A stretch of DNA of 64,000 nt from Escherichia coli (GTDB lineage Bacteria; Pseudomonadota; Gammaproteobacteria; Enterobacterales; Enterobacteriaceae): NCBI RefSeq assembly GCF_050920415.1, contig NZ_CP169309.1, one strand, 5' to 3'. Below are positions 2,459 to 55,614 of the stretch, one piece after another. The notes below the pieces were generated by a model. It did no database searches and had not been told where the DNA came from. It saw only the letters and a program-made list of their open reading frames with translations. Both the position numbers and the translations under genes were made by a program. The first letter of the stretch is position 1. Each line of letters begins with the position of its first letter.

Positions 2459-3016
2459 TTAAAACGTGGTGGGCGTATGGGCGCTGATAATTCGGCAAAT
2501 ACCTGCCGACGTATTACTGAAACTGTGCGGGATGCCGGTATTAATGGCATAACTTTGCCCCGCGACGAGGTGGTAATCCTGACCATTAATCGTCAGAACA
2601 ATTTCACCTTCCAGTACAGTGCCTATTTCCTCACCCTGATGCTTAATTCTTTCCCCAGTGGTTGTGCCCGGCTGGTAAGTTTCAAAGATCATCGCCAGCG
2701 TGCGATTCGGGTTACCGTTATGAACCAGCTTCATTGACACACCCTGACTGCCCATCTCAATTAAGTCGTCCTGATTAATGACGACCTGTGGCTCATCAGG
2801 TTTTTCCGGCTCGGAAAAGAATTCCGAGAGTGACAGACCATACACCTTCAGCAGCTTTTGCAGCGTACTGATGGCAGGGCTGACTTTATCTTGTTCTATC
2901 GTACTGATAGCACTGTGAGTCAGCCCGGAGAGTTCGGCGGCACGACGTTGTGAAAGCCCCTGCTGCTGGCGGATTTCCGACAAGCGTTTTCCTGGCGCCA
3001 GTCCCTCATCACTCAT
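2459..3016 (-). CDS. puuR: HTH/cupin transcriptional repressor of putrescine utilisation
   Basis: 185-aa ORF with N-terminal HTH (QQQGLSQRRAAELSGLTHSAISTIEQ) and C-terminal cupin region. Confidence 0.9.
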   Translation of the reverse strand: MSDEGLAPGKRLSEIRQQQGLSQRRAAELSGLTHSAISTIEQDKVSPAISTLQKLLKVYGLSLSEFFSEPEKPDEPQVVINQDDLIEMGSQGVSMKLVHNGNPNRTLAMIFETYQPGTTTGERIKHQGEEIGTVLEGEIVLTINGQDYHLVAGQSYAINTGIPHSFSNTSAGICRIISAHTPTTF

Positions 3017-3042
3017 ATTTGCATTTCCTTAAACTGTAGTGG

Positions 3043-3807
3043 TCAGAGTCGCTGTTTTTCAGCGATATGGTGCTGACAAGCGGTGATAAAGCCCTCGAAC
3101 AATATACGCGAAAGCGCGTACTCGCTACTGTTCCATTCCGGGTGCCACTGTACGCCCAGCGCAAAAGGATGATTGATGACGCTAACCGCCTCAACTAAGC
3201 CATCCGGCGAGCGAGCTTCAACACGCAACCGTGGGCTAACGACCTTCGCCCCTTGTCCATGCAGAGAGTTTACCCAAAAGTTGCTACATTCAGGTAACAG
3301 TGCAGACAGCAATCCCCCCTCTTCAACCTGAACTTCATGCGACGGTGCATATTGCTGTTCCACCGGCAGTTCGGGATCTTCCCGATGTTCCAGCAATTCA
3401 GGCTGTTCGCACAGCTTGCGATGCAACGAACCACCGGTTGCCACCACCAGTTCCTGTAAACCCCGGCAGATGGCGAAAATGGGGATGCGCCTTTCGAGTG
3501 CGGCATTAATTAACGCCATGCTCAGAAGATCACGCCCGGGATCGGCGTCAGGCTCATCGCCGTTTTCACCATATAGGTGCGGCTGCACATTGCTGGGACT
3601 ACCAGGAAGATAAATACCATCGAGTTTCGGCAAAAGTTGTTCAAGTAATGACGGTTCCGCCAGCGCATGTGGCAGCGCAATTGGCAAGCCGCCTGCGTGG
3701 ATGATGGCATTCAGGTACTTTTCTTGCAGAGTCTGGGTCGCATGACCCTTAAGCCTGTTCCTGCACATTACGACACCGATAACCGGATTGTTCATTATAT
3801 TTTCCAT
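3043..3807 (-). CDS. puuD: gamma-glutamyl-GABA hydrolase
   Basis: ORF trimmed to MENIMNNPVIGVV..., 254 aa; glutamine amidotransferase-like. Confidence 0.88.
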   Translation of the reverse strand: MENIMNNPVIGVVMCRNRLKGHATQTLQEKYLNAIIHAGGLPIALPHALAEPSLLEQLLPKLDGIYLPGSPSNVQPHLYGENGDEPDADPGRDLLSMALINAALERRIPIFAICRGLQELVVATGGSLHRKLCEQPELLEHREDPELPVEQQYAPSHEVQVEEGGLLSALLPECSNFWVNSLHGQGAKVVSPRLRVEARSPDGLVEAVSVINHPFALGVQWHPEWNSSEYALSRILFEGFITACQHHIAEKQRL

Positions 3808-4018: not shown

Positions 4019-5437
4019 ATGGAAACCAATATCGTTGAAGTAGAGAACTTTGTTCAGCAGTCAGAAGAGAGGCGGGGTAGCGCCTTTACGCAGGAAGTGA
4101 AACGCTACCTGGAGCGCTACCCGAATACGCAATATGTTGATGTTTTACTTACCGATCTGAATGGTTGTTTTCGTGGGAAACGTATTCCTGTTTCAAGCCT
4201 GAAGAAGCTCGAGAAAGGGTGTTATTTCCCGGCCTCGGTGTTTGCAATGGATATTCTGGGCAACGTAGTAGAAGAAGCGGGCCTGGGTCAGGAAATGGGC
4301 GAGCCGGATCGTACCTGTGTTCCTGTTCTCGGTTCCTTAACCCCATCTGCTGCAGATCCTGAGTTTATCGGTCAGATGCTCCTGACCATGGTCGATGAAG
4401 ATGGCGCTCCCTTTGACGTTGAGCCGCGGAACGTTCTTAACCGCCTGTGGCAGCAGCTACGCCAGCGCGGATTGTTCCCGGTTGTAGCGGTAGAGCTGGA
4501 GTTCTATTTACTGGATCGCCAGCGCGACGCTGAAGGGTATCTGCAACCGCCCTGCGCGCCCGGCACCGATGACCGCAATACACAAAGTCAGGTTTACTCC
4601 GTTGATAACCTCAACCACTTCGCCGACGTGCTCAATGATATTGATGAGCTGGCGCAGTTACAGCTGATTCCGGCAGATGGCGCGGTCGCCGAGGCCTCGC
4701 CAGGTCAGTTTGAAATCAATCTTTACCATACCGATAACGTGCTGGAAGCTTGCGATGATGCGCTGGCACTAAAACGCCTGGTGCGTCTGATGGCAGAAAA
4801 GCATAAGATGCACGCCACTTTTATGGCGAAGCCGTATGAAGAGCACGCGGGCAGCGGGATGCATATCCATATCAGTATGCAAAATAATCGTGGCGAGAAC
4901 GTGCTTTCTGACGCGGAAGGCGAAGATTCGCCGCTGCTGAAAAAGATGCTCGCCGGGATGATTGACCTGATGCCGTCATCAATGGCGTTGCTGGCACCAA
5001 ACGTGAACTCGTATCGCCGCTTCCAGCCGGGGATGTATGTACCGACGCAGGCGTCGTGGGGCCATAACAACCGCACCGTCGCCCTGCGTATTCCCTGCGG
5101 CGATCGCCATAATCACCGCGTGGAATATCGCGTGGCGGGTGCCGATGCCAACCCGTATTTGGTGATGGCAGCGATTTTTGCCGGTATTTTGCACGGTCTT
5201 GATAACGCGCTGCCGTTGCAGGAAGAAGTCGAAGGCAACGGGCTGGAGCAGGAAGGCTTACCCTTCCCGATTCGCCAAAGCGATGCCCTGAGTGAGTTTA
5301 TCGAGAACGATCATCTACGCCGCTATTTAGGTGATCGCTTCTGCCATGTCTATCACGCCTGTAAAAATGATGAGCTGTTGCAGTTTGAGCGCCTCATCAC
5401 AGAAACAGAAATTGAGTGGATGCTCAAAAACGCGTAA
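4019..5437 (+). CDS. puuA: glutamate-putrescine ligase (glutamine synthetase family)
   Basis: ORF 3941..5437 trimmed to METNIVEVENF..., 472 aa. Confidence 0.9.
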   Translation: METNIVEVENFVQQSEERRGSAFTQEVKRYLERYPNTQYVDVLLTDLNGCFRGKRIPVSSLKKLEKGCYFPASVFAMDILGNVVEEAGLGQEMGEPDRTCVPVLGSLTPSAADPEFIGQMLLTMVDEDGAPFDVEPRNVLNRLWQQLRQRGLFPVVAVELEFYLLDRQRDAEGYLQPPCAPGTDDRNTQSQVYSVDNLNHFADVLNDIDELAQLQLIPADGAVAEASPGQFEINLYHTDNVLEACDDALALKRLVRLMAEKHKMHATFMAKPYEEHAGSGMHIHISMQNNRGENVLSDAEGEDSPLLKKMLAGMIDLMPSSMALLAPNVNSYRRFQPGMYVPTQASWGHNNRTVALRIPCGDRHNHRVEYRVAGADANPYLVMAAIFAGILHGLDNALPLQEEVEGNGLEQEGLPFPIRQSDALSEFIENDHLRRYLGDRFCHVYHACKNDELLQFERLITETEIEWMLKNA

Positions 5438-35812: not shown

Positions 35813-36571
35813 ATGCATTACCAGCCAAAACAAGATTTACTCAATGATCGCATTATCCTGGTGACGGGAGCCAGCAATGGTATTGGTCGTGAAGCCGCGA
35901 TGACGTATGCACGCTATGGTGCGACAGTGATTCTGTTGGGCCGTAATGAAGAAAAATTACGTCAGGTAGCCAGCCACATAAACGAAGAAACTGGGCGTCA
36001 GCCACAGTGGTTTATTCTCGATTTGCTGACCTGCACGTCCGAAGATTGCCAACAACTGGCACAGCGCATTGCCGTTAATTATCCGCGTCTGGATGGTGTT
36101 TTGCATAATGCCGGATTGCTCGGCGATGTTTGCCCAATGAGCGAGCAAAACCCGCAGGTCTGGCAGGACGTCATGCAGGTCAACGTTAATGCCACCTTTA
36201 TGCTCACCCAGGCACTGCTTCCTTTATTACTCAAATCGGACGCCGGTTCACTGGTCTTTACTTCATCAAGCGTTGGACGTCAGGGGCGTGCAAACTGGGG
36301 CGCTTATGCAGCGTCGAAATTTGCCACCGAAGGGATGATGCAGGTACTGGCCGATGAATATCAGCAGCGCCTGCGCGTCAACTGCATTAACCCAGGTGGT
36401 ACGCGCACCGCAATGCGCGCAAGCGCCTTCCCGACCGAAGATCCACAGAAACTTAAAACACCCGCTGATATCATGCCGCTCTACCTCTGGCTGATGGGCG
36501 ATGACAGCCGCCGTAAAACCGGCATGACCTTTGACGCCCAACCGGGCCGTAAACCAGGAATATCCCAATGA
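35813..36571 (+). CDS. yciK: short-chain dehydrogenase/reductase
   Basis: 252 aa; TGASNGIGRE Rossmann motif. Confidence 0.9.
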   Translation: MHYQPKQDLLNDRIILVTGASNGIGREAAMTYARYGATVILLGRNEEKLRQVASHINEETGRQPQWFILDLLTCTSEDCQQLAQRIAVNYPRLDGVLHNAGLLGDVCPMSEQNPQVWQDVMQVNVNATFMLTQALLPLLLKSDAGSLVFTSSSVGRQGRANWGAYAASKFATEGMMQVLADEYQQRLRVNCINPGGTRTAMRASAFPTEDPQKLKTPADIMPLYLWLMGDDSRRKTGMTFDAQPGRKPGISQ

Positions 36572-37158
36572 GTGATGAACGCTACCAACAGCGTCAGCAG
36601 CGTGTAAAAGATAAAGTGGATGCCCGTGTGGCCCAGGCCCAGGATGAACGCGGTATTATCATCGTCTTTACCGGCAATGGAAAAGGCAAAACCACCGCGG
36701 CATTTGGTACAGCAGCTCGCGCAGTTGGTCACGGAAAAAAAGTGGGCGTCGTGCAGTTTATTAAAGGCACCTGGCCTAATGGCGAACGAAAACTGCTGGA
36801 GCCACACGGCGTTGAGTTTCAAGTGATGGCAACGGGCTTTACCTGGGATACGCAAAACCGCGAATCTGATACCGCAGCCTGCCGTGAAGTCTGGCAACAT
36901 GCCAAACGAATGCTGGCAGATGCTTCACTGGATATGGTTTTGCTCGATGAGCTGACGTATATGGTGGCGTATGACTATTTACCACTGGATGAAGTGGTGC
37001 AGGCGTTAAATGAACGTCCACATCAACAGACGGTGATTATCACGGGTCGTGGTTGTCATCGGGATATTCTTGAACTGGCGGATACGGTAAGTGAATTACG
37101 CCCTGTCAAACATGCGTTTGATGCCGGTGTTAAGGCGCAAATCGGGATTGATTATTAA
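36568..37158 (+). CDS. btuR: cob(I)yrinic acid a,c-diamide / corrinoid adenosyltransferase
   Basis: 196 aa; P-loop GNGKGKTTAAFG; start overlaps the yciK stop by 4 nt. Confidence 0.93.
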   Translation: MSDERYQQRQQRVKDKVDARVAQAQDERGIIIVFTGNGKGKTTAAFGTAARAVGHGKKVGVVQFIKGTWPNGERKLLEPHGVEFQVMATGFTWDTQNRESDTAACREVWQHAKRMLADASLDMVLLDELTYMVAYDYLPLDEVVQALNERPHQQTVIITGRGCHRDILELADTVSELRPVKHAFDAGVKAQIGIDY

Positions 37159-37163
37159 GGGAA

Positions 37164-37197
37164 AGCACCTCAAAAGATCGCCTCTTGAGGTGCTTTA
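37164..37197. terminator. hairpin downstream of btuR (also downstream of the 102-aa minus-strand ORF)
   Basis: agcacctcaa...ttgaggtgct inverted repeat followed by tttaat. Confidence 0.55.
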
Positions 37198-37210
37198 ATC
37201 ATAATTATAT

Positions 37211-37519
37211 TCAAGCGGCAATAGCAAAACTCAGAATCCGTTTAATCTCATTCAAATGTCCCGGATATGCTTCATGATTCTCAGCGTCAACATCTTCAAT
37301 AAATAATATCAGTTCAGTAATTAACGCATTGGCATCTTCATAACTGATTCCGCTTAACTCTGGCGAAGTTTCAGTACCGTAGTTAATCGTCAGATTGTTC
37401 ATCACCGTGAGGATAAGGATAAAATATTTATGACAAACCTTGCAAGTGGTTTTGTTGCCCAGAGTATTATACAGCATATCAAGTAATGCCAGTATTCTAC
37501 GGTTTTGTACATCGTTCAT
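37211..37519 (-). CDS. hypothetical 102-aa protein, second gene of an AT-rich two-gene module; function unknown
   Basis: Uninterrupted ORF in ~35% GC DNA; strong SD (taGGAGGggc) 7 nt upstream of ATG; starts 12 nt after the upstream lipoprotein stop; single CxxC (CKVCH), acidic C-terminal half. Confidence 0.6.
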   Translation of the reverse strand: MNDVQNRRILALLDMLYNTLGNKTTCKVCHKYFILILTVMNNLTINYGTETSPELSGISYEDANALITELILFIEDVDAENHEAYPGHLNEIKRILSFAIAA

Positions 37520-37531
37520 AAAAAGCCCCTC

Positions 37532-38533
37532 CTATAACATTATTCCGCTGGCAATAAGTAATTTCGCCAGCCCCTCAGACGCCTTTAACCCACTAATGAC
37601 CTGTGCGCGTAATATTTCATTTAATCTGTTTTGTTCAGCTGCCGTGCGTGTTTTATTAGTGTATAAACCTTTTAGATAATCACCCTTATCTATAAAGGCA
37701 TTTAAAGCTTCAATCGCGGGCATTGCAGCAGCCGATGCCTGTAGTCTGGTTTCATTCACATTGATTACTGAACTTAGAAACTCCTTCCTGTTTTTCAGAG
37801 TGTTAAACTCTGTATTCTTAGAGTTTTTAGATACCGCATTATAATAAAGCATATTATTATGTACATTCGCAAAGGTATAATTTTCAATCTTATCGCCTTT
37901 TGTATAAATATCATTACGCAAAACAGTCATGTTTTTTATAAGTCTTACCCAATTTTTATCCGCCGTTTTACCTATTTTCCCAGCATTGACCTTTATTATA
38001 TATAACTCGTTGAAATAACTTACTAAATCTTTAACTGCCGCTGCCGATTCAGCTAAATCTTTGCTATGTGAAACATCAAGTAGTGTTTGCGCGTTGTTTG
38101 CGTGATCCAGAGCCTGTTTAAGTAATGTCACTTGCTGACTTTCTGTAGTTTTTATGTCTTCAGTCAAGAGCTCTACATAAGCACTCATGCTATTAATGAC
38201 TTCCATTGAAGCCAGTAGTTTCTCTTTTTCGAATGGGACTAATTGTACTTTATCTGTTTTTTCTTCAGGGGGCCTGCATAATTTTCCACCCTGACCATCG
38301 TTCGCAACATCAATGGTATAATCAGGTCGCAATGCACAATCCGGATTAGTCGCATAAAAATTAACAAGGAAGTTTTCACGAGAAGCATAGTATTGTTTAA
38401 AGAAACTTGCATTCGCCGCAACCGCCTTGTTACCCGCAGTAATAACAGTTTCAGCTTGCTCATTTTTCAATGCTTCAGTTGCACAACCTGAAAGCATTAA
38501 CAGCGATAGAAATAATCCACTATATCTAATCAT
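37532..38533 (-). CDS. hypothetical 333-aa lipoprotein (predicted outer-membrane-targeted), first gene of the AT-rich module
   Basis: N-terminus MIRYSGLFLSLLMLSGC-ATEA (signal peptide plus lipobox LSGC, Ala at +2); SD agaGGTGG upstream; 1 kb ORF in AT-rich DNA where stop codons are frequent. Confidence 0.7.
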   Translation of the reverse strand: MIRYSGLFLSLLMLSGCATEALKNEQAETVITAGNKAVAANASFFKQYYASRENFLVNFYATNPDCALRPDYTIDVANDGQGGKLCRPPEEKTDKVQLVPFEKEKLLASMEVINSMSAYVELLTEDIKTTESQQVTLLKQALDHANNAQTLLDVSHSKDLAESAAAVKDLVSYFNELYIIKVNAGKIGKTADKNWVRLIKNMTVLRNDIYTKGDKIENYTFANVHNNMLYYNAVSKNSKNTEFNTLKNRKEFLSSVINVNETRLQASAAAMPAIEALNAFIDKGDYLKGLYTNKTRTAAEQNRLNEILRAQVISGLKASEGLAKLLIASGIML

Positions 38534-38654
38534 AACCCACCTCTTGACGTTGAGTTTATCTCAGATAATTAAATAGTAATGTGGCTATTCCCTGGCATTA
38601 TTCATAAGCAAGTATGAAATTAAATTAAAATACTGCGACTATTTATCATGCTTC

Positions 38655-38690
38655 AAATGAAGAAAAGGCCCCGCAGGGCCTTTATTTAAT
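38655..38690 (-). terminator. rho-independent terminator of rluB
   Basis: aaaggccc-cgca-gggccttt hairpin 20 nt after the rluB stop, followed on the minus strand by ttttcttcattt. Confidence 0.7.
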
Positions 38691-38702
38691 ACTTAACTTA
38701 AA

Positions 38703-39578
38703 TTAACCGTTATTATTACGTCCACCAGAACGACGACCGCCGCTGACCTGGCTGTGACGTTTCACCGCACGACGAATTTGATTCGCCTTCATACGACGAC
38801 GGTCTTTTTCTACAGCAACTTTAGAGCTGGTTTCTGGCGGTAGTTCCACCAGCTCACGCAGATAGTTAGTCTGGGCAAGATCCAGCTCAGTCCAGCCACC
38901 GCGTGGCAGACCTTTCGGCAGTGGGATATCACCGTAACGCACGCGGATCAGACGGCTCACCTGCACACCAACAGCTTCCCAAAGACGACGAACTTCACGG
39001 TTACGGCCTTCGGTCAGAGTAACATTGTACCACTGGTTGATCCCTTCGCCGCCGCTGAACTTAATGGTTTTAAAGGCTGCCGGACCATCTTCCAGCTGCA
39101 CGCCACGACTCAAATCACGCAGTTTCGCGTCGTCAACCTGACCAAATACACGCACGGCATATTCACGTTCAACTTCACGGCTTGGATGCATTAGACGGTT
39201 TGCCAGTTCACCGTCGGTGGTAAACAGCAGGAGACCGCAGGTGTTAACGTCCAGACGACCTACGGCAATCCAGCGTGCACCGCGCAGTTTTGGCAGACGG
39301 TCAAATACCGTTGGACGCCCTTCCGGATCGTTACGGGTACACAACTCACCTTCCGGTTTGTAATAGGCCAGAACGCGACAAATTTGTTCAGCGGACTCAC
39401 GTACCGAAATCAGGTGACCATCGATACGGATTTTCAATCCAGGGGTAATTTCAACACGATCGCCGAGTTTAGCAATTTTGCCATCAACACTCACACGACC
39501 GGCTTCAATAATAGATTCGATTTCACGGCGAGAACCGTGGCCGGCACGCGCCAGCACTTTCTGTAGCTTTTCGCTCAT
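38703..39578 (-). CDS. rluB: 23S rRNA pseudouridine(2605) synthase
   Basis: 291 aa; S4 domain at the N-terminus, pseudouridine synthase core, basic RG-rich tail. Confidence 0.93.
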
Positions 39579-39678
39579 AGAGCTTCCTTTTGGTGTCGCC
39601 TTCCCAGGCGTCGAACAGGAGAATCAATGGCGCAGTAGAGCGCCATTTTAAGGCCGCGTAGTATACAGAGTTAATCAC

Positions 39679-40299
39679 TTATAAAAAAGGCTTCACATCA
39701 CCTACACCTTCACGCAATACGACTGGCGTATCATCGGTGAGATCAATAACCGTTGTCGGTTTCTGCCCGAGATAGCCGCCGTGAATAATCAAATCCACCT
39801 GTTTTTCCAGACGGTCTTTAATTTCTTCCGGGTCAGACTCGGTAAATTCGCTGCCAGGTAGCATCAGTGATGTGGAAAGCATCGGTTCGCCCAATGCTTC
39901 AAGCAACGCCTGCGCAATCGGGTTAGAAGGCACACGCATACCGATGGTTTTGCGTTTTTCCTGCAACAGACGGCGTGGCACTTCCTTCGTCCCCTTCAGG
40001 ATGAAAGTGTAGTTACCCGGCGTATTGTTTTTCATCAAACGAAACGCAACGTTATCGACAAATGAATAGGTCGAGAGTTCAGAAAGATCGCGACACATCA
40101 GGGTAAAGTTGTGACCGTCCGGCAGCTGGCGAATACGACAAATACGCTCCATGGCGTTTTTATCTTCAATTTTACAGCCGAGCGCATAGCCGGAATCAGT
40201 TGGATAAACAATCACCCCGCCTTTACGCACGATCTCCACCGCCTGGTTGATCAGACGTTGCTGCGGGTTATCAGGATGAATATAAAAAAACTGGCTCAT
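39679..40299 (-). CDS. yciO: YrdC/Sua5-family dsRNA-binding protein
   Basis: ORF trimmed to MSQFFYIHPDNPQQRLINQAVEIVRKGGVIVYPTDSGYALGC..., 206 aa. Confidence 0.88.
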   Translation of the reverse strand: MSQFFYIHPDNPQQRLINQAVEIVRKGGVIVYPTDSGYALGCKIEDKNAMERICRIRQLPDGHNFTLMCRDLSELSTYSFVDNVAFRLMKNNTPGNYTFILKGTKEVPRRLLQEKRKTIGMRVPSNPIAQALLEALGEPMLSTSLMLPGSEFTESDPEEIKDRLEKQVDLIIHGGYLGQKPTTVIDLTDDTPVVLREGVGDVKPFL

Positions 40300-41177
40300 A
40301 ATTCCCTCTCTGTGGTGTTCTGCGGCTGTTCCCATAGCTGCCAGACGCCTTCAACGCCTGCGGGCAGCCAGAGTTTACGACCCAGTTCGATCCACGGGCA
40401 TGGCTGATGAAAATCAGATCCTTGTGATGCCCATAAATGGTGCTGGCGGGCAAGCGTCGCCAGTTGGGTGCGTTCATTGGGCGATTGCTGGCACTGCGCG
40501 ACTTCCATCGCGTCGCCGTGGTGTTCGGCAAAATGCGCAACCAATCTTTTCAGCCATTTAGCACTAAGATTGTACCGCCCAGGATGAGCAAGCACTGCCT
40601 TACCGCCAGAATGATGAATGACATCAATAGCTTGTTCTATTGTACACCACTGTGGCGGAACGTATCCGGTTTTCCCGCGTGCCAGATATTTTTTAAAGAC
40701 ATCCGCTATTGAACTGGCTTTGCCACATTCAACCAAGAAACGCGCAAAATGACCGCGCGTCACCGCACCGCCCTGCGCCAGTCGTTGCGCGCCTTCCAGC
40801 GCCCCAGGTATTTGCGCTTTTTCAAGTCTTTCGGCAATTAACTTCGCCCGCTGATTGCGCCGTTCTGTCTGCTGCGCGAGGAACTCACTCATTGCCGAAT
40901 GTGCAATATCAATATTCAGCCCGACAATATGAATTTCATGATTTTCCCAGACGGTGGATATTTCCACGCCAGGAATAAGATTCAGTGCCAGTCCTGAACG
41001 TGAAATTTCTTCTCTTGCTGGCGCGATTGCCGCTGTGGTGTCATGGTCGGTGATCGCCAGGGTGCCGACGCGCATCTCGACTGCACGGTGCACCAATGCT
41101 TCTGGCGTCAGGCAGCCATCGGAAGCTGTGGTATGGCTGTGCAGGTCATAAATCACTGCGTAATTCGTGTCGCTCAA
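40296..41177 (-). CDS. trpH: PHP-domain 5'-3' exoribonuclease / phosphoesterase (TrpH / YciV / RNase AM)
   Basis: PHP motif HSHTTASDG; proposed TTG start (plus-strand caa at 41175-41177) gives 293 aa; an alternative ATG lies upstream. Confidence 0.85.
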   Translation of the reverse strand: MSDTNYAVIYDLHSHTTASDGCLTPEALVHRAVEMRVGTLAITDHDTTAAIAPAREEISRSGLALNLIPGVEISTVWENHEIHIVGLNIDIAHSAMSEFLAQQTERRNQRAKLIAERLEKAQIPGALEGAQRLAQGGAVTRGHFARFLVECGKASSIADVFKKYLARGKTGYVPPQWCTIEQAIDVIHHSGGKAVLAHPGRYNLSAKWLKRLVAHFAEHHGDAMEVAQCQQSPNERTQLATLARQHHLWASQGSDFHQPCPWIELGRKLWLPAGVEGVWQLWEQPQNTTEREL

Positions 41178-41251
41178 GGCGCACTCCCGTTTTGGATAAT
41201 GTTTTTGCGCCGACATCATAACGGTTCTGGCAAATATTCTGAAATGAGCTG

Positions 41252-41290
41252 TTGACAATTAATCACCGGACTAGTTAACTAGTACGCAAG
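41252..41290 (+). promoter_or_regulatory. trp promoter (-35 TTGACA 41252-41257, -10 TTAACT 41275-41280) with overlapping TrpR operator
   Basis: Direct reading: ttgaca-17 bp-ttaact; palindromic actagttaactagt operator core. Confidence 0.85.
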
Positions 41291-41313
41291 TTCACGTAAA
41301 AAGGGTATCGACA

Positions 41314-41358
41314 ATGAAAGCGATTTTCGTACTGAAAGGTTGGTGGCGCACTTCCTGA
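41314..41358 (+). CDS. trpL: trp operon leader peptide
   Basis: [14 protein letters not shown] with tandem Trp codons. Confidence 0.9.
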
Positions 41359-41400
41359 AACGGGCAGTGTATTCACCATGCGTAAAGCAATCAGATACCC

Positions 41401-41428
41401 AGCCCGCCTAATGAGCGGGCTTTTTTTT
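41401..41428 (+). terminator. trp attenuator (3:4 terminator hairpin)
   Basis: agcccgcctaatgagcgggc followed by tttttttt, 22 nt before the trpE ATG. Confidence 0.9.
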
Positions 41429-41449
41429 GAACAAAATTAGAGAATAACA

Positions 41450-43012
41450 ATGCAAACACAAAAACCGACTCTCGAACTGTTAACCTGCGAAGGTGCTTAT
41501 CGCGATAATCCGACCGCGCTTTTTCATCAGTTGTGTGGGGATCGTCCGGCAACGCTGCTGCTTGAATCCGCAGATATCGACAGCAAAGATGATTTAAAAA
41601 GCCTGCTGCTGGTGGACAGTGCGCTGCGCATTACAGCATTAGGTGACACTGTCACTATTCAGGCACTTTCCGGCAATGGCGAAGCTCTGCTGGCATTACT
41701 GGATAACGCCCTGCCTGCGGGTGTGGAAAATGAACAATCACCAAACTGCCGCGTGCTGCGCTTCCCTCCTGTCAGTCCATTGCTGGATGAAGACGCCCGC
41801 TTATGCTCTCTTTCGGTTTTTGACGCTTTTCGCTTATTGCAGAATCTGTTGAATGTACCGAAGGAAGAACGAGAAGCAATGTTCTTCGGCGGCCTGTTCT
41901 CTTATGACCTTGTGGCGGGGTTTGAAGATTTACCGCAATTGTCAGCGGAAAATAACTGCCCTGATTTCTGTTTTTATCTCGCTGAAACGCTGATGGTTAT
42001 CGATCATCAGAAAAAAAGTACCCGTATTCAGGCCAGTCTTTTTGCTCCCAATGAAGAAGAAAAACAACGTCTCACTGCTCGCCTGAACGAACTTCGCCAG
42101 CAACTGACCGAAACCGCGCCGCCGCTGCCGGTAGTTTCCGTGCCGCATATGCATTGTGAATGTAATCAGAGCGATGAAGAGTTCGGTGGCGTAGTGCGTT
42201 CGTTGCAAAAAGCGATTCGCGCCGGAGAAATTTTCCAGGTCGTACCATCTCGCCGTTTCTCACTGCCCTGCCCGTCATCGCTGGCGGCCTATTACGTGCT
42301 GAAAAAGAGTAATCCCAGCCCGTACATGTTTTTTATGCAGGATAATGATTTCACCCTGTTCGGCGCGTCGCCGGAAAGTTCGCTCAAGTATGACGCCTCC
42401 AGCCGCCAGATTGAGATCTACCCGATTGCCGGAACACGCCCACGAGGACGTCGCGCCGATGGTTCACTGGACAGAGACCTGGACAGCCGCATTGAACTGG
42501 AGATGCGTACCGACCATAAAGAGCTTTCTGAACATCTGATGCTGGTGGATCTCGCCCGTAATGACCTTGCGCGCATTTGCACTCCTGGCAGCCGCTACGT
42601 TGCCGACCTGACCAAAGTTGACCGTTACTCTTACGTGATGCATCTCGTCTCCCGCGTTGTCGGTGAGCTGCGCCACGATCTTGACGCCCTGCACGCTTAC
42701 CGCGCCTGTATGAATATGGGCACGTTAAGCGGTGCCCCGAAAGTGCGCGCCATGCAGTTAATTGCCGAAGCGGAAGGTCGTCGACGCGGCAGCTACGGCG
42801 GTGCGGTAGGTTATTTCACCGCACATGGCGATCTCGACACCTGCATTGTCATCCGTTCGGCGCTGGTGGAAAACGGTATCGCCACCGTGCAAGCCGGTGC
42901 TGGCGTAGTCCTTGATTCTGTTCCGCAGTCGGAAGCCGACGAAACCCGTAATAAAGCCCGCGCTGTACTGCGCGCTATCGCCACCGCGCATCATGCACAG
43001 GAGACTTTCTGA
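41450..43012 (+). CDS. trpE: anthranilate synthase component I
   Basis: 520-aa [57 protein letters not shown]... Confidence 0.96.
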
Positions 43013-44607
43013 TGGCTGACATTCTGCTGCTCGATAATATCGACTCTTTTACTTATAACCTGGCAGATCAGTTGCGCAGCAATGGGCATAACGTGGTGAT
43101 TTACCGCAACCATATTCCGGCGCAAACCTTAATTGAACGTCTTGCGACCATGAGCAATCCGGTGCTGATGCTTTCTCCTGGCCCCGGAGTGCCGAGTGAA
43201 GCGGGTTGTATGCCGGAACTCCTCACCCGTTTGCGTGGCAAGCTGCCAATTATTGGCATTTGCCTCGGACATCAGGCGATTGTCGAAGCTTACGGGGGCT
43301 ATGTCGGTCAGGCGGGAGAAATTCTTCACGGTAAAGCGTCGAGCATTGAACATGACGGTCAGGCGATGTTTGCCGGATTAACAAACCCATTGCCGGTAGC
43401 GCGTTATCACTCGTTGGTTGGCAGTAACATTCCGGCAGGTTTAACCATCAATGCCCATTTTAACGGCATGGTGATGGCGGTGCGTCATGATGCGGATCGC
43501 GTTTGTGGATTCCAGTTCCATCCGGAATCCATTCTCACCACCCAGGGCGCTCGCCTGCTGGAACAAACGCTGGCCTGGGCGCAACAGAAGCTGGAGCCGA
43601 CCAACACACTGCAACCAATTCTGGAAAAACTGTATCAGGCGCAGACGCTTAGCCAACAAGAAAGCCACCAGCTGTTTTCAGCGGTGGTGCGTGGCGAGCT
43701 GAAACCGGAACAACTGGCGGCTGCATTGGTCAGCATGAAAATTCGCGGCGAGCACCCGAACGAAATCGCCGGGGCAGCAACTGCCCTTCTGGAAAATGCT
43801 GCGCCGTTCCCACGCCCTGATTATCTGTTTGCCGATATCGTCGGCACCGGCGGTGACGGCAGCAACAGTATCAATATTTCTACCGCCAGTGCGTTTGTCG
43901 CCGCGGCCTGTGGGCTGAAAGTGGCGAAACACGGTAACCGCAGCGTCTCCAGTAAATCCGGCTCGTCGGATCTGCTGGCGGCATTCGGTATTAATCTTGA
44001 TATGAACGCCGATAAATCGCGCCAGGCGCTGGATGAGTTAGGCGTCTGTTTCCTCTTTGCGCCGAAATATCACACCGGATTTCGCCATGCGATGCCGGTT
44101 CGCCAGCAACTGAAAACCCGCACCCTGTTCAATGTGCTGGGGCCATTGATTAACCCGGCGCATCCTCCGCTGGCGTTAATTGGTGTTTATAGTCCGGAAC
44201 TGGTGCTGCCGATTGCCGAAACCTTGCGCGTGCTGGGGTATCAACGCGCGGCGGTGGTGCACAGCGGCGGGATGGATGAAGTTTCATTACACGCGCCGAC
44301 AATCGTTGCCGAACTGCATGACGGCGAAATTAAGAGCTATCAGTTGACCGCTGAAGATTTTGGCCTGACTCCCTACCATCAGGAGCAACTGGCAGGCGGA
44401 ACACCGGAAGAAAACCGTGACATTTTAACACGCTTGTTACAAGGTAAAGGCGACGCCGCCCATGAAGCAGCTGTCGCGGCGAATGTCGCCATGTTAATGC
44501 GCCTGCATGGCCAGGAAGATCTGCAAACCAATGCGCAAACCGTTCTTGAGGTACTGCGCAGTGGTTCCGCTTACGACAGAGTCACCGCACTGGCGGCACG
44601 AGGGTAA
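43012..44607 (+). CDS. trpD: bifunctional anthranilate synthase component II / anthranilate phosphoribosyltransferase
   Basis: 531 aa; start overlaps the trpE stop (tgATGg). Confidence 0.96.
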
Positions 44608-47174: not shown

Positions 47175-47980
47175 TGGAACGCTACGAATCTCTGTTTGCC
47201 CAACTGAAGGAGCGCAAAGAAGGCGCATTCGTTCCTTTCGTCACCCTCGGTGATCCGGGCATTGAGCAGTCGCTGAAAATTATCGATACGTTAATTGAAG
47301 CCGGTGCTGACGCGCTGGAGTTAGGTATCCCCTTCTCCGACCCACTGGCAGATGGCCCGACGATTCAAAACGCCACACTGCGTGCCTTTGCGGCAGGTGT
47401 GACCCCGGCGCACTGCTTTGAGATGCTGGCACTCATTCGCCAGAAGTACCCGACCATTCCGATCGGCCTTTTGATGTATGCCAACCTGGTGTTTAACAAA
47501 GGCATTGATGAGTTTTATGCCGAGTGCGAGAAAGTCGGCGTCGATTCGGTGCTGGTTGCCGATGTGCCCGTGGAAGAGTCTGCGCCCTTCCGCCAGGCCG
47601 CGTTGCGCCATAACGTCGCACCTATCTTCATCTGCCCGCCGAATGCTGATGATGATTTACTGCGCCAGATTGCCTCTTACGGTCGTGGTTACACCTATTT
47701 ATTGTCGCGTGCGGGTGTGACCGGAGCTGAAAACCGTGCCGCGTTACCTCTCAATCATCTGGTTGCGAAGCTGAAAGAGTACAACGCTGCGCCTCCATTG
47801 CAAGGATTTGGTATTTCCGCCCCGGATCAGGTAAAAGCAGCGATTGATGCAGGAGCGGCGGGCGCGATTTCTGGTTCGGCAATTGTTAAAATCATCGAGC
47901 AACATATTAATGAGCCAGAGAAAATGCTGGCGGTACTGAAAGCTTTTGTACAACCGATGAAAGCAGCGACGCGCAGTTAA
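47174..47980 (+). CDS. trpA: tryptophan synthase alpha chain
   Basis: 268 aa; start overlaps the trpB stop (tgATGg). Confidence 0.96.
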
Positions 47981-47987
47981 TCCCACA

Positions 47988-48014
47988 GCCGCCAGTTCCG
48001 CTGGCGGCATTTTA
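47988..48014 (+). terminator. trp operon terminator (trp t)
   Basis: gccgccag-ttccg-ctggcggc hairpin followed by atttt. Confidence 0.8.
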
Positions 48015-48360
48015 ACTATCTTTAATGAAGCAGGAAAAATCCTAAATTCATTTATTATTTATCTTTTTACCGTTTCGCTTACCCCTGACGTACGTTAACT
48101 TACGTCATTTTTCCGCCCAAAAGTAATATAATCAAACAAATTAATCCCGCAACAAAACACTACTAAAATCAATAATTTTCTCTAACCCACTTATTTCTTG
48201 GGTATTTATGAATATATCGAAACTCTTTTTCAAAATATATTTTTCACATTCCTTCTCACTTTGCTCAATTTGACTAATTCTCATTACCGACTAATTTTAA
48301 TGAGTGTCGACACACAACACTCATATTAATGAAACAATGCAACGCAACGGGAGAAATAAC

Positions 48361-48540
48361 ATGGCCGAACATCGTGGTGGTTCAGGAAATTTCGCCGAAG
48401 ATCGTGAGAAGGCATCCGACGCAGGCCGTAAAGGCGGTCAACACAGCGGCGGTAATTTTAAAAATGATCCGCAACGCGCATCCGAAGCGGGTAAAAAAGG
48501 CGGTCAGCACAGCGGTGGAAATAAATCAGGAAAATCCTGA
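48361..48540 (+). CDS. yciG: small glycine-rich stress protein YciG
   Basis: ORF trimmed to MAEHRGGSGNFAEDREKASDAGRKGGQHSGGNF..., 59 aa with KGG repeats. Confidence 0.85.
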   Translation: MAEHRGGSGNFAEDREKASDAGRKGGQHSGGNFKNDPQRASEAGKKGGQHSGGNKSGKS

Positions 48541-48632
48541 TCCGCCGTTAATTATTAATATCAGCTGACGTTGATAAAGATAATTGCCTCTGCGGGCCGT
48601 ATGGCTCGCAGTGATTTCACTGGAGTAAAAAT

Positions 48633-49133
48633 ATGAATATGAAGTCCATTGAAGATGTATTTATTCACCTGCTTTCAGACACCTACAGTGCAGAAAAACA
48701 ATTAACACGGGCACTGGCAAAACTCGCCAGAGCAACATCAAACGAAAAATTAAGTCAGGCTTTTCATGCGCACCTCGAGGAAACTCATGGACAGATTGAA
48801 CGTATTGATCAAGTTGTGGAATCTGAACCGAATCTGAAAATTAAGCGCATGAAATGTGTGGCAATGGAAGGTCTCATTGAAGAAGCTAATGAGGTCATCG
48901 AAAGCACCGAGAAAAACGAAGTGCGTGATGCCGCACTGATTGCCGCGGCACAGAAAGTCGAGCACTATGAGATCGCCAGTTACGGGACCTTAGCGACGCT
49001 GGCTGAACAATTAGGTTATCGTAAAGCAGCGAAGCTTCTGAAAGAAACCCTGGAAGAAGAAAAGGCCACCGACATCAAATTGACTGATCTGGCCCTTAAT
49101 AACGTAAATAAGAAAGCAGAAAATAAAGCCTGA
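48633..49133 (+). CDS. yciF: DUF892 ferritin-like stress protein YciF
   Basis: 166-aa ORF. Confidence 0.88.
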   Translation: MNMKSIEDVFIHLLSDTYSAEKQLTRALAKLARATSNEKLSQAFHAHLEETHGQIERIDQVVESEPNLKIKRMKCVAMEGLIEEANEVIESTEKNEVRDAALIAAAQKVEHYEIASYGTLATLAEQLGYRKAAKLLKETLEEEKATDIKLTDLALNNVNKKAENKA

Positions 49134-49178
49134 AATATGAACTTTAACTTTTAGTCATTTTATAAAGAGGACATTTTC

Positions 49179-49685
49179 ATGAATCGTATTGAACATTATC
49201 ATGACTGGTTACGTGACGCCCACGCAATGGAAAAGCAAGCAGAATCTATGCTTGAATCCATGGCCAGCCGCATAGATAATTATCCTGAGCTACGCGCTCG
49301 TATTGAACAACATGTTAGTGAAACCAAAAACCAGATTGTACAACTGGAAACTATTCTTGATCGTAATGACATTTCACGCTCAGTCATTAAAGATTCTATG
49401 AGTAAAATGGCTGCACTTGGGCAGTCAATCGGTGGTATATTCCCTTCTGATGAAATAGTCAAAGGCTCTATTAGCGGATATGTCTTCGAGCAATTTGAAA
49501 TCGCCTGTTACACCTCACTATTAGCAGCAGCAAAAAATGCCGGTGATACAGCTTCAATTCCAACCATCGAAGCGATTTTAAATGAGGAAAAAGAAATGGC
49601 CGAGTGGCTGATTCAGCATATTCCGCAAACAACTGAGAAATTTTTAATACGCTCTGAAACTGATGGCGTAGAAGCGAAGAAATAA
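49179..49685 (+). CDS. yciE: DUF892 ferritin-like stress protein YciE
   Basis: 168-aa ORF, paralogous to yciF. Confidence 0.88.
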   Translation: MNRIEHYHDWLRDAHAMEKQAESMLESMASRIDNYPELRARIEQHVSETKNQIVQLETILDRNDISRSVIKDSMSKMAALGQSIGGIFPSDEIVKGSISGYVFEQFEIACYTSLLAAAKNAGDTASIPTIEAILNEEKEMAEWLIQHIPQTTEKFLIRSETDGVEAKK

Positions 49686-49708
49686 TACCCTTTATACCAT
49701 GTCCTTAT

Positions 49709-53535: not shown

Positions 53536-53832
53536 GTGTTGTATGTTATTTACGCTCAAGACAAAGCTGATAGCCTCGAAAAACGCCTTTCCGTTCGTCC
53601 GGCACATTTAGCACGTTTACAGTTACTGCATGATGAAGGTCGATTGTTGACCGCCGGTCCAATGCCAGCAGTAGACAGTAACGATCCAGGGGCTGCGGGA
53701 TTTACTGGCTCAACCGTTATTGCTGAATTTGAATCGCTGGAAGCAGCTCAGGCCTGGGCCGATGCTGACCCGTACGTGGCGGCAGGAGTCTATGAACACG
53801 TTTCAGTGAAACCATTTAAGAAAGTGTTCTGA
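53536..53832 (+). CDS. yciI: YciI-like protein (98 aa), GTG start
   Basis: SD caaGGAGtt then GTG at 53536; product (M)[27 protein letters not shown]... Confidence 0.8.
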
Positions 53833-54132
53833 ATAGAGATTCAATATTTAAGGGCACGGTTTTAGCAACCGTGTTCTAGTTTGGCCTTTCCTTATAGGTC
53901 TGTCAGTGCATTCACCCCCACAAGCAGATAATAACTTTATCTGTATTTCTTTATATGATGTGAGCATATTCAGGAAAAATGCCCTTTCCTGACGCAGAGT
54001 TGCTCACTCAAAACCTTTGATTACTTCAGATAAAGTCATCTACTATTGTTTAACACATTCACGTGCTGCATGTATGTTCAGAAAATGTGCACGTTGAGAT
54101 AATTAAACAAAATTGTGGTTACAGAGGTATCA

Positions 54133-55386
54133 GTGAGTCACTGGACTACATTCAAACAAACAGCAACAAATTTATGGGTGACCCTACGGCACGACATTCT
54201 CGCGCTGGCCGTCTTTTTAAATGGATTGCTTATTTTTAAAACAATCTATGGTATGTCGGTCAATTTGCTTGATATTTTCCATATCAAAGCCTTTTCAGAG
54301 TTAGATCTCTCCTTGCTGGCAAATGCCCCACTCTTTATGCTCGGCGTCTTTCTTGTCCTGAACTCCATTGGCTTACTGTTCCGGGCAAAGCTCGCATGGG
54401 CAATCAGTATCATTTTGTTGTTGATAGCGCTAATTTACACCCTGCATTTTTATCCCTGGCTGAAATTTAGTATTGGATTTTGCATTTTTACGCTGGTGTT
54501 TTTGCTGATACTGCGCAAAGACTTCTCCCACAGTAGCGCCGCAGCCGGGACAATTTTCGCATTTATTAGTTTCACGACGTTACTGTTTTACTCCACCTAC
54601 GGTGCGCTTTATTTAAGCGAAGGTTTTAATCCGCGAATAGAAAGTTTGATGACCGCGTTCTATTTTTCGATAGAAACCATGTCAACCGTCGGCTATGGCG
54701 ATATTGTCCCTGTTTCTGAATCAGCACGATTGTTCACTATTTCGGTCATTATTTCCGGCATTACCGTTTTTGCCACCTCCATGACTTCAATTTTTGGTCC
54801 GCTTATCCGCGGGGGATTCAACAAACTTGTAAAAGGAAAAAATCATACAATGCATCGTAAAGATCATTTTATTGTTTGCGGGCATTCGATTCTCGCCATC
54901 AATACGATTCTGCAACTGAATCAACGCGGACAAAATGTAACGGTTATCAGCAACTTGCCTGAAGATGATATCAAGCAACTTGAGCAACGCTTAGGTGATA
55001 ACGCTGATGTTATCCCCGGTGACAGTAATGACAGTTCAGTATTAAAGAAAGCAGGAATCGATCGATGCCGGGCCATTCTGGCGCTGAGTGATAACGATGC
55101 TGATAACGCGTTTGTTGTACTATCGGCAAAAGATATGAGCAGTGATGTCAAAACAGTTCTCGCCGTCAGTGATAGCAAAAACCTGAATAAGATTAAGATG
55201 GTACATCCGGATATCATTCTCTCGCCGCAACTGTTTGGCAGCGAAATTCTGGCACGAGTTTTAAATGGTGAAGAGATTAATAATGATATGCTCGTTTCAA
55301 TGTTGTTGAACTCCGGTCATGGTATTTTCAGCGATAACGATGAACAAGAAACGAAAACTGACAGCAAAGAATCGGCGCAAAAATAG
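54133..55386 (+). CDS. kch: voltage-gated potassium channel Kch
   Basis: K+ selectivity filter TVGYGD; RCK/TrkA-N domain; GTG start proposed (417 aa). Confidence 0.9.
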   Translation: MSHWTTFKQTATNLWVTLRHDILALAVFLNGLLIFKTIYGMSVNLLDIFHIKAFSELDLSLLANAPLFMLGVFLVLNSIGLLFRAKLAWAISIILLLIALIYTLHFYPWLKFSIGFCIFTLVFLLILRKDFSHSSAAAGTIFAFISFTTLLFYSTYGALYLSEGFNPRIESLMTAFYFSIETMSTVGYGDIVPVSESARLFTISVIISGITVFATSMTSIFGPLIRGGFNKLVKGKNHTMHRKDHFIVCGHSILAINTILQLNQRGQNVTVISNLPEDDIKQLEQRLGDNADVIPGDSNDSSVLKKAGIDRCRAILALSDNDADNAFVVLSAKDMSSDVKTVLAVSDSKNLNKIKMVHPDIILSPQLFGSEILARVLNGEEINNDMLVSMLLNSGHGIFSDNDEQETKTDSKESAQK

Positions 55387-55440
55387 AGTTTGAAGACGAA
55401 AGGGCAAACTTATTGGGCACCGCAATGGTGCCCAGAACAT

Positions 55441-55614
55441 TTAGATATTGTAGATCGCAAACAATAACGAGTTACGCTGTTTGTTTAGAATGCACTTCCT
55501 GATGCTGTGGATACGCATATTTCGGCGCGACTGCCCCTCAAGCCAACGCGATTTACGTCGGCTAGCCTGACGCTGCATGCGCCAGCGCCCCACTTCCGTT
55601 CTACTCCGCTTCAT
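55441..55614 (-). CDS. yciY: small basic protein YciY (57 aa)
   Basis: Internal start of the 94-aa ORF gives MKRSRTEVGRWRMQRQASRRKSRW..., 57 aa, matching my recollection of YciY; no strong SD seen. Confidence 0.45.
   Translation of the reverse strand: MKRSRTEVGRWRMQRQASRRKSRWLEGQSRRNMRIHSIRKCILNKQRNSLLFAIYNI

Follow-up and report, generated by a model that had tools for sequence, protein, structure and literature searches.

Several described systems offer points of comparison for the locus studied here, a two-gene cassette that fills the gap between the convergent core genes btuR (also called cobO) and rluB in a 64,000-nucleotide (nt) stretch of Escherichia coli DNA (contig NZ_CP169309.1), which we call the window. 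The best structural neighbours outside the family are the DUF3829 (PF12889) lipoproteins such as YiiG of E. coli K-12, which resemble the longer of the two cassette products in having a lipoprotein signal, a length of about 330-350 amino acids (aa) and an elongated all-alpha bundle. No relationship to them was found at the sequence level, however, and YiiG is a single core gene without a small partner. DUF3829 itself is without known function, so the resemblance yields no mechanism. A second group comprises the accessory outer-membrane lipoproteins Cor, T5 Llp, TraT and lambda Bor. The idea of exclusion at the level of the envelope that they represent fits the population pattern of the cassette, and one copy of the cassette family lies in a P2-like prophage, but these proteins are roughly 60-240 aa long, encoded by single genes and unrelated in sequence, and the cassette family is almost never found on phages or plasmids. 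The polymorphic toxin systems CdiA-CT/CdiI and Rhs-CT/RhsI share three features with the cassette: the 5' part is conserved, the sequence turns abruptly divergent towards the 3' end, and a small acidic open reading frame (ORF) downstream varies along with it. In the cassette, though, the divergent parts are homologous to each other, the product is a 333-aa lipoprotein, and neither a toxin domain nor secretion machinery is found. Finally, fliC and the O-antigen clusters likewise have allele classes that far predate the species, and recombination in their conserved flanks exchanges them, whereas the cassette is tiny, has two genes, is often absent altogether and encodes a product whose surface exposure is only presumed. 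The cassette fits none of DUF3829, the known defence systems, the phage exclusion lipoproteins or the polymorphic toxins, and it can be placed in generic categories only (lipoprotein, accessory islet).

We hold with high confidence a joint description of this locus. It is an autonomous bicistronic accessory cassette whose products are a helical lipoprotein of the outer-membrane type and a cytoplasmic partner that is small and acidic. It has long resided at its junction, from which K-12-like lineages have lost it, and it exists as ancient allele classes with a homogenised 5' end. Its features, in window coordinates, are the following.

36568-37158, plus strand: btuR/cobO.
37162-37196, no strand: stable hairpin after the cobO/btuR stop and 3' of the small gene, with 15-nt arms that are 93% complementary.
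37211-37519, minus strand: partner gene, 102 aa, product acidic (isoelectric point 4.8) and without a signal peptide.
37520-37534, minus strand: 12-nt spacer and TAG stop of the lipoprotein gene; by sequence inspection the small gene's Shine-Dalgarno (SD) sequence, AGGAGG, overlaps the TAG.
37532-38533, minus strand: lipoprotein gene, 333 aa, lipobox L-S-G-C with Cys17 and Ala at +2.
38234-38317, minus strand: hypervariable hairpin or loop, codons 73-100, which differs in length between the 333-aa and 340-aa alleles.
38331-38533, minus strand: homogenised 5' part, codons 1 to about 68 (signal peptide and first helix), 96-100% nt identity between classes.
38534-38662, minus strand: upstream control region, with the SD sequence GAGGTGGG at about 38537-38544, which must hold the promoter.
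38601-38618, no strand: palindrome TTCATA-N6-TATGAA, a candidate operator (Citrobacter form TTCAT-N8-ATGAA).
38633-38641, minus strand: block TAGTCGCAG, invariant from Escherichia to Citrobacter, a candidate promoter or regulator element.
38664-38683, minus strand: rluB intrinsic terminator, GGCCC-N4-GGGCC stem (8-bp) with a T-rich tail.
38703-39578, minus strand: rluB, with its stop at 38703.

The original prediction, made from the letters of the window, described two co-oriented minus-strand ORFs of 333 and 102 aa, 12 nt apart and with good ribosome-binding sites, in a segment more AT-rich than its flanks. Both the coordinates and the SD sequences bear this out. The SD sequences read from the sequence are strong, GAGGTGGG standing 5' of the lipoprotein ATG and AGGAGG 5' of the small gene. 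Given that the latter overlaps the lipoprotein stop codon, translational coupling is plausible and the second gene may be coupled to the first. The composition is equally distinct. The guanine plus cytosine fraction (GC) of 37198-38660 (1463 nt) is 0.366 against 0.500 for the whole window, and this is the minimum among 626 sliding windows of 1463 nt (mean 0.500, standard deviation 0.036). A 300-nt profile gives 0.31-0.41 between cobO and rluB versus 0.47-0.56 in the flanks, and GC at third codon positions (GC3) is 0.31 and 0.37 for the two ORFs versus 0.45-0.46 in cobO and rluB. The cassette lies 13-19 GC points below its surroundings in E. coli, in Citrobacter and in the host of the prophage copy, and is equal to them in low-GC hosts. 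In composition the segment is thus foreign to its enteric flanks. Other low-GC stretches of the window (0.40-0.42 in 1463-nt windows) are found downstream of the trp operon region, at about 47800-49700 and about 53800-55500.

The 333-aa product begins with MIRYSGLFLSLLMLSGC-A, a lipobox with Cys17 followed by Ala. Using the pattern [LVI][ASTVI][GAS]C with no Asp at +2, we found that 34 of the 39 members of the family have a strict lipobox and the remaining five a near-lipobox; the +2 residue is A, G, S or T in these proteins and never D. Lipoproteins of E. coli that lack Asp at this position are sorted to the outer membrane, and this rule, together with a lipobox Cys followed by Ala, predicts a Sec/Lol-type lipoprotein with an outer-membrane anchor. 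AlphaFold2 modelling from the 39-sequence alignment gave an elongated all-alpha bundle that includes a helix of 78 residues and, at residues 73-97 (strands 73-77 and 93-97), a short beta-hairpin, with a predicted local distance difference test score (pLDDT) of 82 and a predicted template modelling score (pTM) of 0.76. When 11 close sequences were used the pLDDT was 47 and the model was unusable. Residues 73-100, the hairpin, are the most variable segment of the protein (entropy peak 1.64), and the nucleotide identity of the window in 38251-38330 is 38-43% to the B2-class and E. albertii alleles and 71% to that of E. whittamii. The residues that are invariant across the 39 aligned members are Cys17, Cys66, Cys86 and Tyr119 only. 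Cys66 stands just before the modelled hairpin and Cys86 inside its loop and, because both are invariant in an exported protein, we infer a Cys66-Cys86 disulfide.

In the partner protein the motif C26-x-x-C29-H30 and the residue H88 are invariant among enteric homologues. The partners encoded in distant genomes are almost all acidic; by sequence they form small groups, and an N-terminal helix pattern that ends in Cys is common to them. The window partner matches the prophage-borne partner with an E-value of about 5e-7, and judging from these sequences common descent of all the partners is plausible.

The distant genomes also suggest that the two genes belong together. An exhaustive profile search of 1.84 billion cluster representatives returned 55 matches, about thirty of which are full-length lipoprotein homologues of 324-357 aa, with 16-25% identity, from other Proteobacteria. 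We inspected eleven distant contexts, two of which end (with the contig) at or just after the lipoprotein gene, leaving nine that can be read downstream. Eight of these nine have an ORF of 96-107 aa whose start lies no more than about 25 nt past the end of the lipoprotein gene. In the ninth (locus L012, 2171-2980) the downstream gene encodes a protein of 269 aa, the C-terminal half of which is hydrophobic and probably membrane-spanning, and which may be a fused or alternative partner. Since the pairing of the lipoprotein with a partner of about 100 aa recurs in distant Proteobacteria, the two products very probably work together. The neighbouring genes are not conserved among the distant contexts. 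One copy is flanked by the tail genes S and V (gpS and gpV) in a P2-like prophage, a position that corresponds to the nonessential orf30 moron site of P2. Another adjoins a DDE transposase, and a third has VapBC, Fic and a Y1 transposase in its surroundings. Matches labelled as plasmid turned out to be chromosome-sized records or mis-assembled chromosome fragments and were discarded.

Neither product had been recognisable in the original prediction, and this did not change when family libraries, profiles and folds were searched with the proteins. Both lack a match in Pfam, NCBIfam, PADLOC or PHROGs, and the family-library scans of ten distant lipoprotein homologues and four partner proteins were likewise empty. 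Sequence profiles of the PDB gave marginal coiled-coil noise only, and a PDB fold search gave generic helical bundles only. Every database annotation that we encountered for either protein reads 'hypothetical protein', and no paper mentioning the cassette came up when the literature was searched with protein accessions, gene neighbours and guessed CFT073 locus tags. Both proteins are previously undescribed families. A Foldseek search of AFDB returned the family itself and DUF3829-named lipoproteins with modest TM-scores. Outside the family it found a DUF3829-named protein of Yokenella (E-value 8e-8, TM-score 0.62), lipoproteins of 330-350 aa, and weak imelysin-like and PilJ/NarX-like helical sensor matches. 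In a Pfam scan 0 of 39 family members match PF12889, or any other Pfam family, and an hhalign comparison of the family with K-12 YiiG, in which the single-sequence template limits sensitivity, aligned the signal peptide alone (probability 6%). We therefore regard DUF3829 as a possible resemblance at the level of the fold and not as a family to which the lipoprotein belongs.

In a sensitive DNA search 1234 of the 5426 complete E. coli genomes (about 23%) proved to carry the islet, those of the pandemic sequence type 131 (ST131) included. Among these carriers the identity to the window is at least 99% in 7 genomes, 90-95% in 417, 80-90% in 34 and 60-80% in 776, the last group including ST131. 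The sites of K-12 MG1655 and of strain 2014C-3011 are empty, with a 39-nt rluB-btuR spacer and a different, single hairpin. The proposal that this is an accessory module has thus survived the comparison with K-12, and the module is absent from about 77% of complete E. coli. The rluB products of the window, of those islet-bearing strains that were sampled and of the empty-site K-12 have 291 aa, that of the empty-site 2014C-3011 has 290 aa, and the rluB alleles differ in the Asn/Gly-rich C-terminal tail by the junction (window 38703-38720 versus 4099-4115 of the 2014C-3011 locus, L002).

The history of the site was judged differently in the original prediction, which saw a horizontally acquired module at a typical integration spot. 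In all the sampled occupied E. coli loci the pair sits between cobO and rluB, and it is found at the identical junction in E. albertii, E. whittamii and Citrobacter. This occupancy across species makes the cassette an old resident rather than a recent insertion, and recent arrival is also contradicted by the divergence within allele classes, which is at about the core level, and by the lack of insertion scars. Flanking direct repeats, an integrase, a transposase and att-like features were looked for at the junction and none was found, short repeat matches being at chance level. Of the marks of a horizontal islet, the locus shows atypical composition and presence or absence among strains, and it shows no insertion signatures or recent arrival. 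When 100,044 species genomes were scanned with two family peptide patterns, E. whittamii and E. albertii were the sole species representatives found, and word-indexed protein searches gave relatives in Escherichia and Citrobacter only. Ancient residence, with loss or replacement in K-12-like lineages, fits these observations at least as well as gain. We also considered a recent lateral spread of the window allele and ruled it out, because the seven genomes with at least 99% identity share the lineage of the window. In one strain, E. coli MS 21-1, the lipoprotein gene is interrupted at about codon 60 by IS1A (2723-3420 of the extracted locus L029) with the partner intact. Many database entries for the lipoprotein are 'partial' at contig ends or truncated (225-293 aa), which together with the IS1A copy suggests frequent disruption or assembly breaks in this AT-rich gene.

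The alleles of the locus differ in an uneven way. Between the window and the B2-type allele, cobO and rluB have 89-100% nt identity, and the stretch that begins at the rluB terminator, takes in the promoter region and ends at lipoprotein codon ~68 has 96-100%. Beyond this point the identity falls sharply to 38-80% over the remaining lipoprotein gene, the partner gene and the 3' spacer, with a recombination breakpoint at about 38330 (codon ~70). The synonymous substitution rate (dS) follows the same pattern, with 0.09 in codons 1-70, 1.56 (saturated) downstream of these and 0.15-0.32 in the flanking core genes. From codon 71 to the end of the lipoprotein gene the nonsynonymous rate (dN) is 0.335 against a dS of 1.56, a ratio of 0.22, and for the partner versus its B2 allele dN is 0.149 and the proportion of synonymous differences (pS) 0.82, with synonymous sites saturated. 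A dN/dS of about 0.2 indicates that both genes are under purifying selection. The 333-aa and 340-aa classes are each common to more than one species, and there is a third class, also of 340 aa, whose protein is about 65% identical to both of the others. Identities in the variable part and in the core genes compare as follows.

333-aa class, window versus E. whittamii: variable part 90% nt identity, core genes 90-93%.
340-aa class, B2 versus E. albertii: variable part 82% nt identity, core genes 86-89%.
Between the two classes within E. coli: variable part 63% nt identity, core genes 93-97%.
Two Citrobacter loci: variable part 69-71% nt identity, core genes 91-94%.

The promoter region and the first ~68 codons, on the other hand, are near-identical across the classes, probably through recombination.

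The autonomy of the cassette bears on its hairpins and its upstream region, and here the earlier claims stood in part. The original prediction placed an intrinsic terminator on each side of the islet. Both hairpins are real, but the terminator scan passes the one on the rluB side only. That hairpin (38664-38683, free energy (dG) -15.7, z -3.0) is conserved in Escherichia and Citrobacter and insulates the cassette from rluB. The hairpin on the cobO side is the more stable fold (dG -19 to -22 kcal/mol, z about -4.5 to -4.7, on both strands) and is kept in the occupied Escherichia alleles, while the empty-site strains have a different one. Since it has no clear U-tract on either strand we would call it a putative intrinsic terminator, and it is likely the 3' end of both convergent transcripts.

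A promoter of the module's own, between 38534 and 38660, had also been proposed. Independent regulation agrees with the conserved terminator and with the upstream blocks that Escherichia and Citrobacter have in common, namely TAGTCGCAG, the palindrome, ATTAC...ATATCTG and the SD sequence. A consensus sigma-70 promoter was not found, however, as a scan upstream of the lipoprotein gene returned no match of at least 9/12, so the promoter has to be treated as a putative one. The sole candidate found by eye is TTGAAG-18-TATTTT at about 38655-38626 (minus strand), which is weak. The palindrome occurs once in the window, where 0.13 occurrences are expected by chance. Across the whole non-coding segment 38534-38702 the identity is 95-99% among the E. 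coli allele classes, E. albertii and E. whittamii, compared with 86-97% in the adjacent core genes, and this excess over the core level may reflect a constrained regulatory region or a recent sweep or gene conversion. RNA structure prediction for the 5' untranslated region gave nothing beyond chance (z 0.29). A full-length but weak Rfam match to STnc130 at 38557-38692 (plus strand; 24 bits versus a gathering score of 55) was judged to be chance, because STnc130 of Salmonella adjoins dmsA (PMC3632133), and we attribute the match to a shared terminator-like hairpin.

Our reading of what the cassette does is tentative, possible rather than probable, and is drawn from sequence comparison. The cassette may be a module for protection or recognition at the envelope, on which diversifying or balancing selection has acted over a long time. 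The lipoprotein would act at the cell envelope against a co-evolving external partner, which could be a phage, a bacteriocin, a competitor effector or a host factor, and the contact surface would be formed by the variable hairpin and the helix faces. Negative frequency-dependent or balancing selection would then give rise to long-lived divergent alleles. The acidic partner would be a cytoplasmic helper (a chaperone, regulator or neutraliser) specific to the cognate lipoprotein allele. We lean toward an envelope factor because the alleles are divergent and old, the hypervariable hairpin is near an invariant Cys pair, the cassette is dispensable, its AT-rich promoter is probably silenced or regulated, and one copy is borne by a prophage.

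Several points weigh against such a module. The dN/dS of about 0.2 means that there is no overall positive selection. The exposure of the lipoprotein at the surface is a presumption, and it is hard to see by what mechanism a cytoplasmic partner would serve a protein of the periplasm or outer membrane. The IS1 disruption and the many truncated copies show a gene that is easily lost. PADLOC-DB 2.0 gave no defence-model match apart from one spurious 13-bit DRT match, and PHROGs and a BFVD viral fold search gave nothing significant. Additionally, the family is absent from 50,697 phage genomes, from IMG/VR and from genuine plasmids, so that the link to mobile elements consists of one prophage copy and one transposase neighbour.

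The alternative that survives best, which we consider possible if doubtful, is that the lipoprotein is a divergent helical envelope lipoprotein of the DUF3829/YiiG type. It would then have a physiological role outside conflict, such as ligand binding, envelope organisation or sensing, with the partner as a dedicated cytoplasmic factor and the variability as a result of weak constraint. The Foldseek matches to DUF3829-named and similar-sized lipoproteins, the shared signal type and all-alpha architecture, and the almost wholly chromosomal distribution of the family are all what one would expect. This though has to be set against the failure of every one of the 39 members to match PF12889 and the restriction of the YiiG alignment to the signal peptide. 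Weak constraint alone also leaves unexplained the low dN/dS at saturated dS, the classes that cross species and the homogenised 5' end.

A pair resembling a polymorphic toxin and its immunity protein is an unlikely explanation. Under it the lipoprotein would be a variable C-terminal effector on a conserved N-terminal export or anchor part, and the partner a cognate immunity or neutralising factor. The architecture agrees with this, in that the N-terminus and promoter are conserved while the C-terminal 80%, from a sharp boundary onward, and the downstream ORF are divergent, and so do the small, acidic and immediately downstream partner and the autonomy of a cassette without conserved neighbours. 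The variable part is nevertheless homologous over its full length in all 39 aligned members, with no swap of an unrelated domain, and we found no toxin or enzyme domain and no catalytic motif in it, the invariant residues being just three Cys and one Tyr. No T5, T6, T7 or Rhs genes were present in any inspected context, and a cytoplasmic immunity protein is mismatched with an envelope-exported toxin. The case in which IS1 disrupts the lipoprotein gene next to an intact partner, with the reverse not seen, is uninformative for addiction.

Quite improbable, in our view, is that the cassette is an islet that arrived lately by horizontal transfer, inserted at a convergent-gene junction where it has no history of note. 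Its low GC and GC3, its patchy occurrence in E. coli and the match of its GC to the low-GC gammaproteobacterial hosts of distant homologues would all suit such an arrival. It is largely contradicted by the occupation of the same junction in three Escherichia species and Citrobacter, by a within-class divergence about equal to the core divergence, and by the lack of insertion scars or mobility genes. That the cassette is a decaying, functionless remnant with ORFs open by chance is very improbable and already contradicted, for although the IS1 insertion, the many truncated or partial copies and the absence from most E. coli would agree with decay, the reading frames of both genes are unbroken in Escherichia and Citrobacter alike even though synonymous sites have diverged to saturation, dN is far lower than dS, the arrangement of two genes recurs across Proteobacteria, and the ribosome-binding sites and upstream blocks are conserved.

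Some observations concern the neighbourhood of the cassette rather than the cassette itself. The gene yciQ (DUF2207, about 1.9 kb), which K-12 has between rluB and yciO, is missing from this position of the window (39579-39678). It is present in several islet-bearing strains (loci L001, L003 and L027) and absent in others of the extracted loci (L002, L025 and L026), and is thus a second, independent presence/absence polymorphism beside the islet. Further on, the yciO-rnm-trpL-trpE-trpD segment (39600-43600) has just about 95.2-95.8% identity to almost all other E. coli genomes. The region 39598-44397 is patchy, with 92.7-100% identity per 300 nt, even when it is compared with members of the window's own lineage, a pattern that suggests imports by recombination around trp.

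Among complete E. coli genomes about 23% have the cassette, clinically important ones such as ST131-type B2 strains among them, and the data define a new protein family pair together with a usable structural model. Allele classes that are older than the species, combined with a breakpoint inside a gene, are a signature typical of loci in conflict with phages, competitors or hosts. Going further, we think it conceivable but fairly unlikely that the pair represents an undescribed and widespread two-component envelope system of Proteobacteria that serves in the exclusion or recognition of phages, bacteriocins or competitors, its allele-specific surfaces on the hairpin and helices being maintained as ancient balanced polymorphisms in Escherichia, ST131 included. 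Without a phenotype the cassette would be one among many E. coli accessory genes of unknown function. If a phenotype exists, it would be a new envelope-level accessory system that comes with natural allelic variants for dissecting its specificity.

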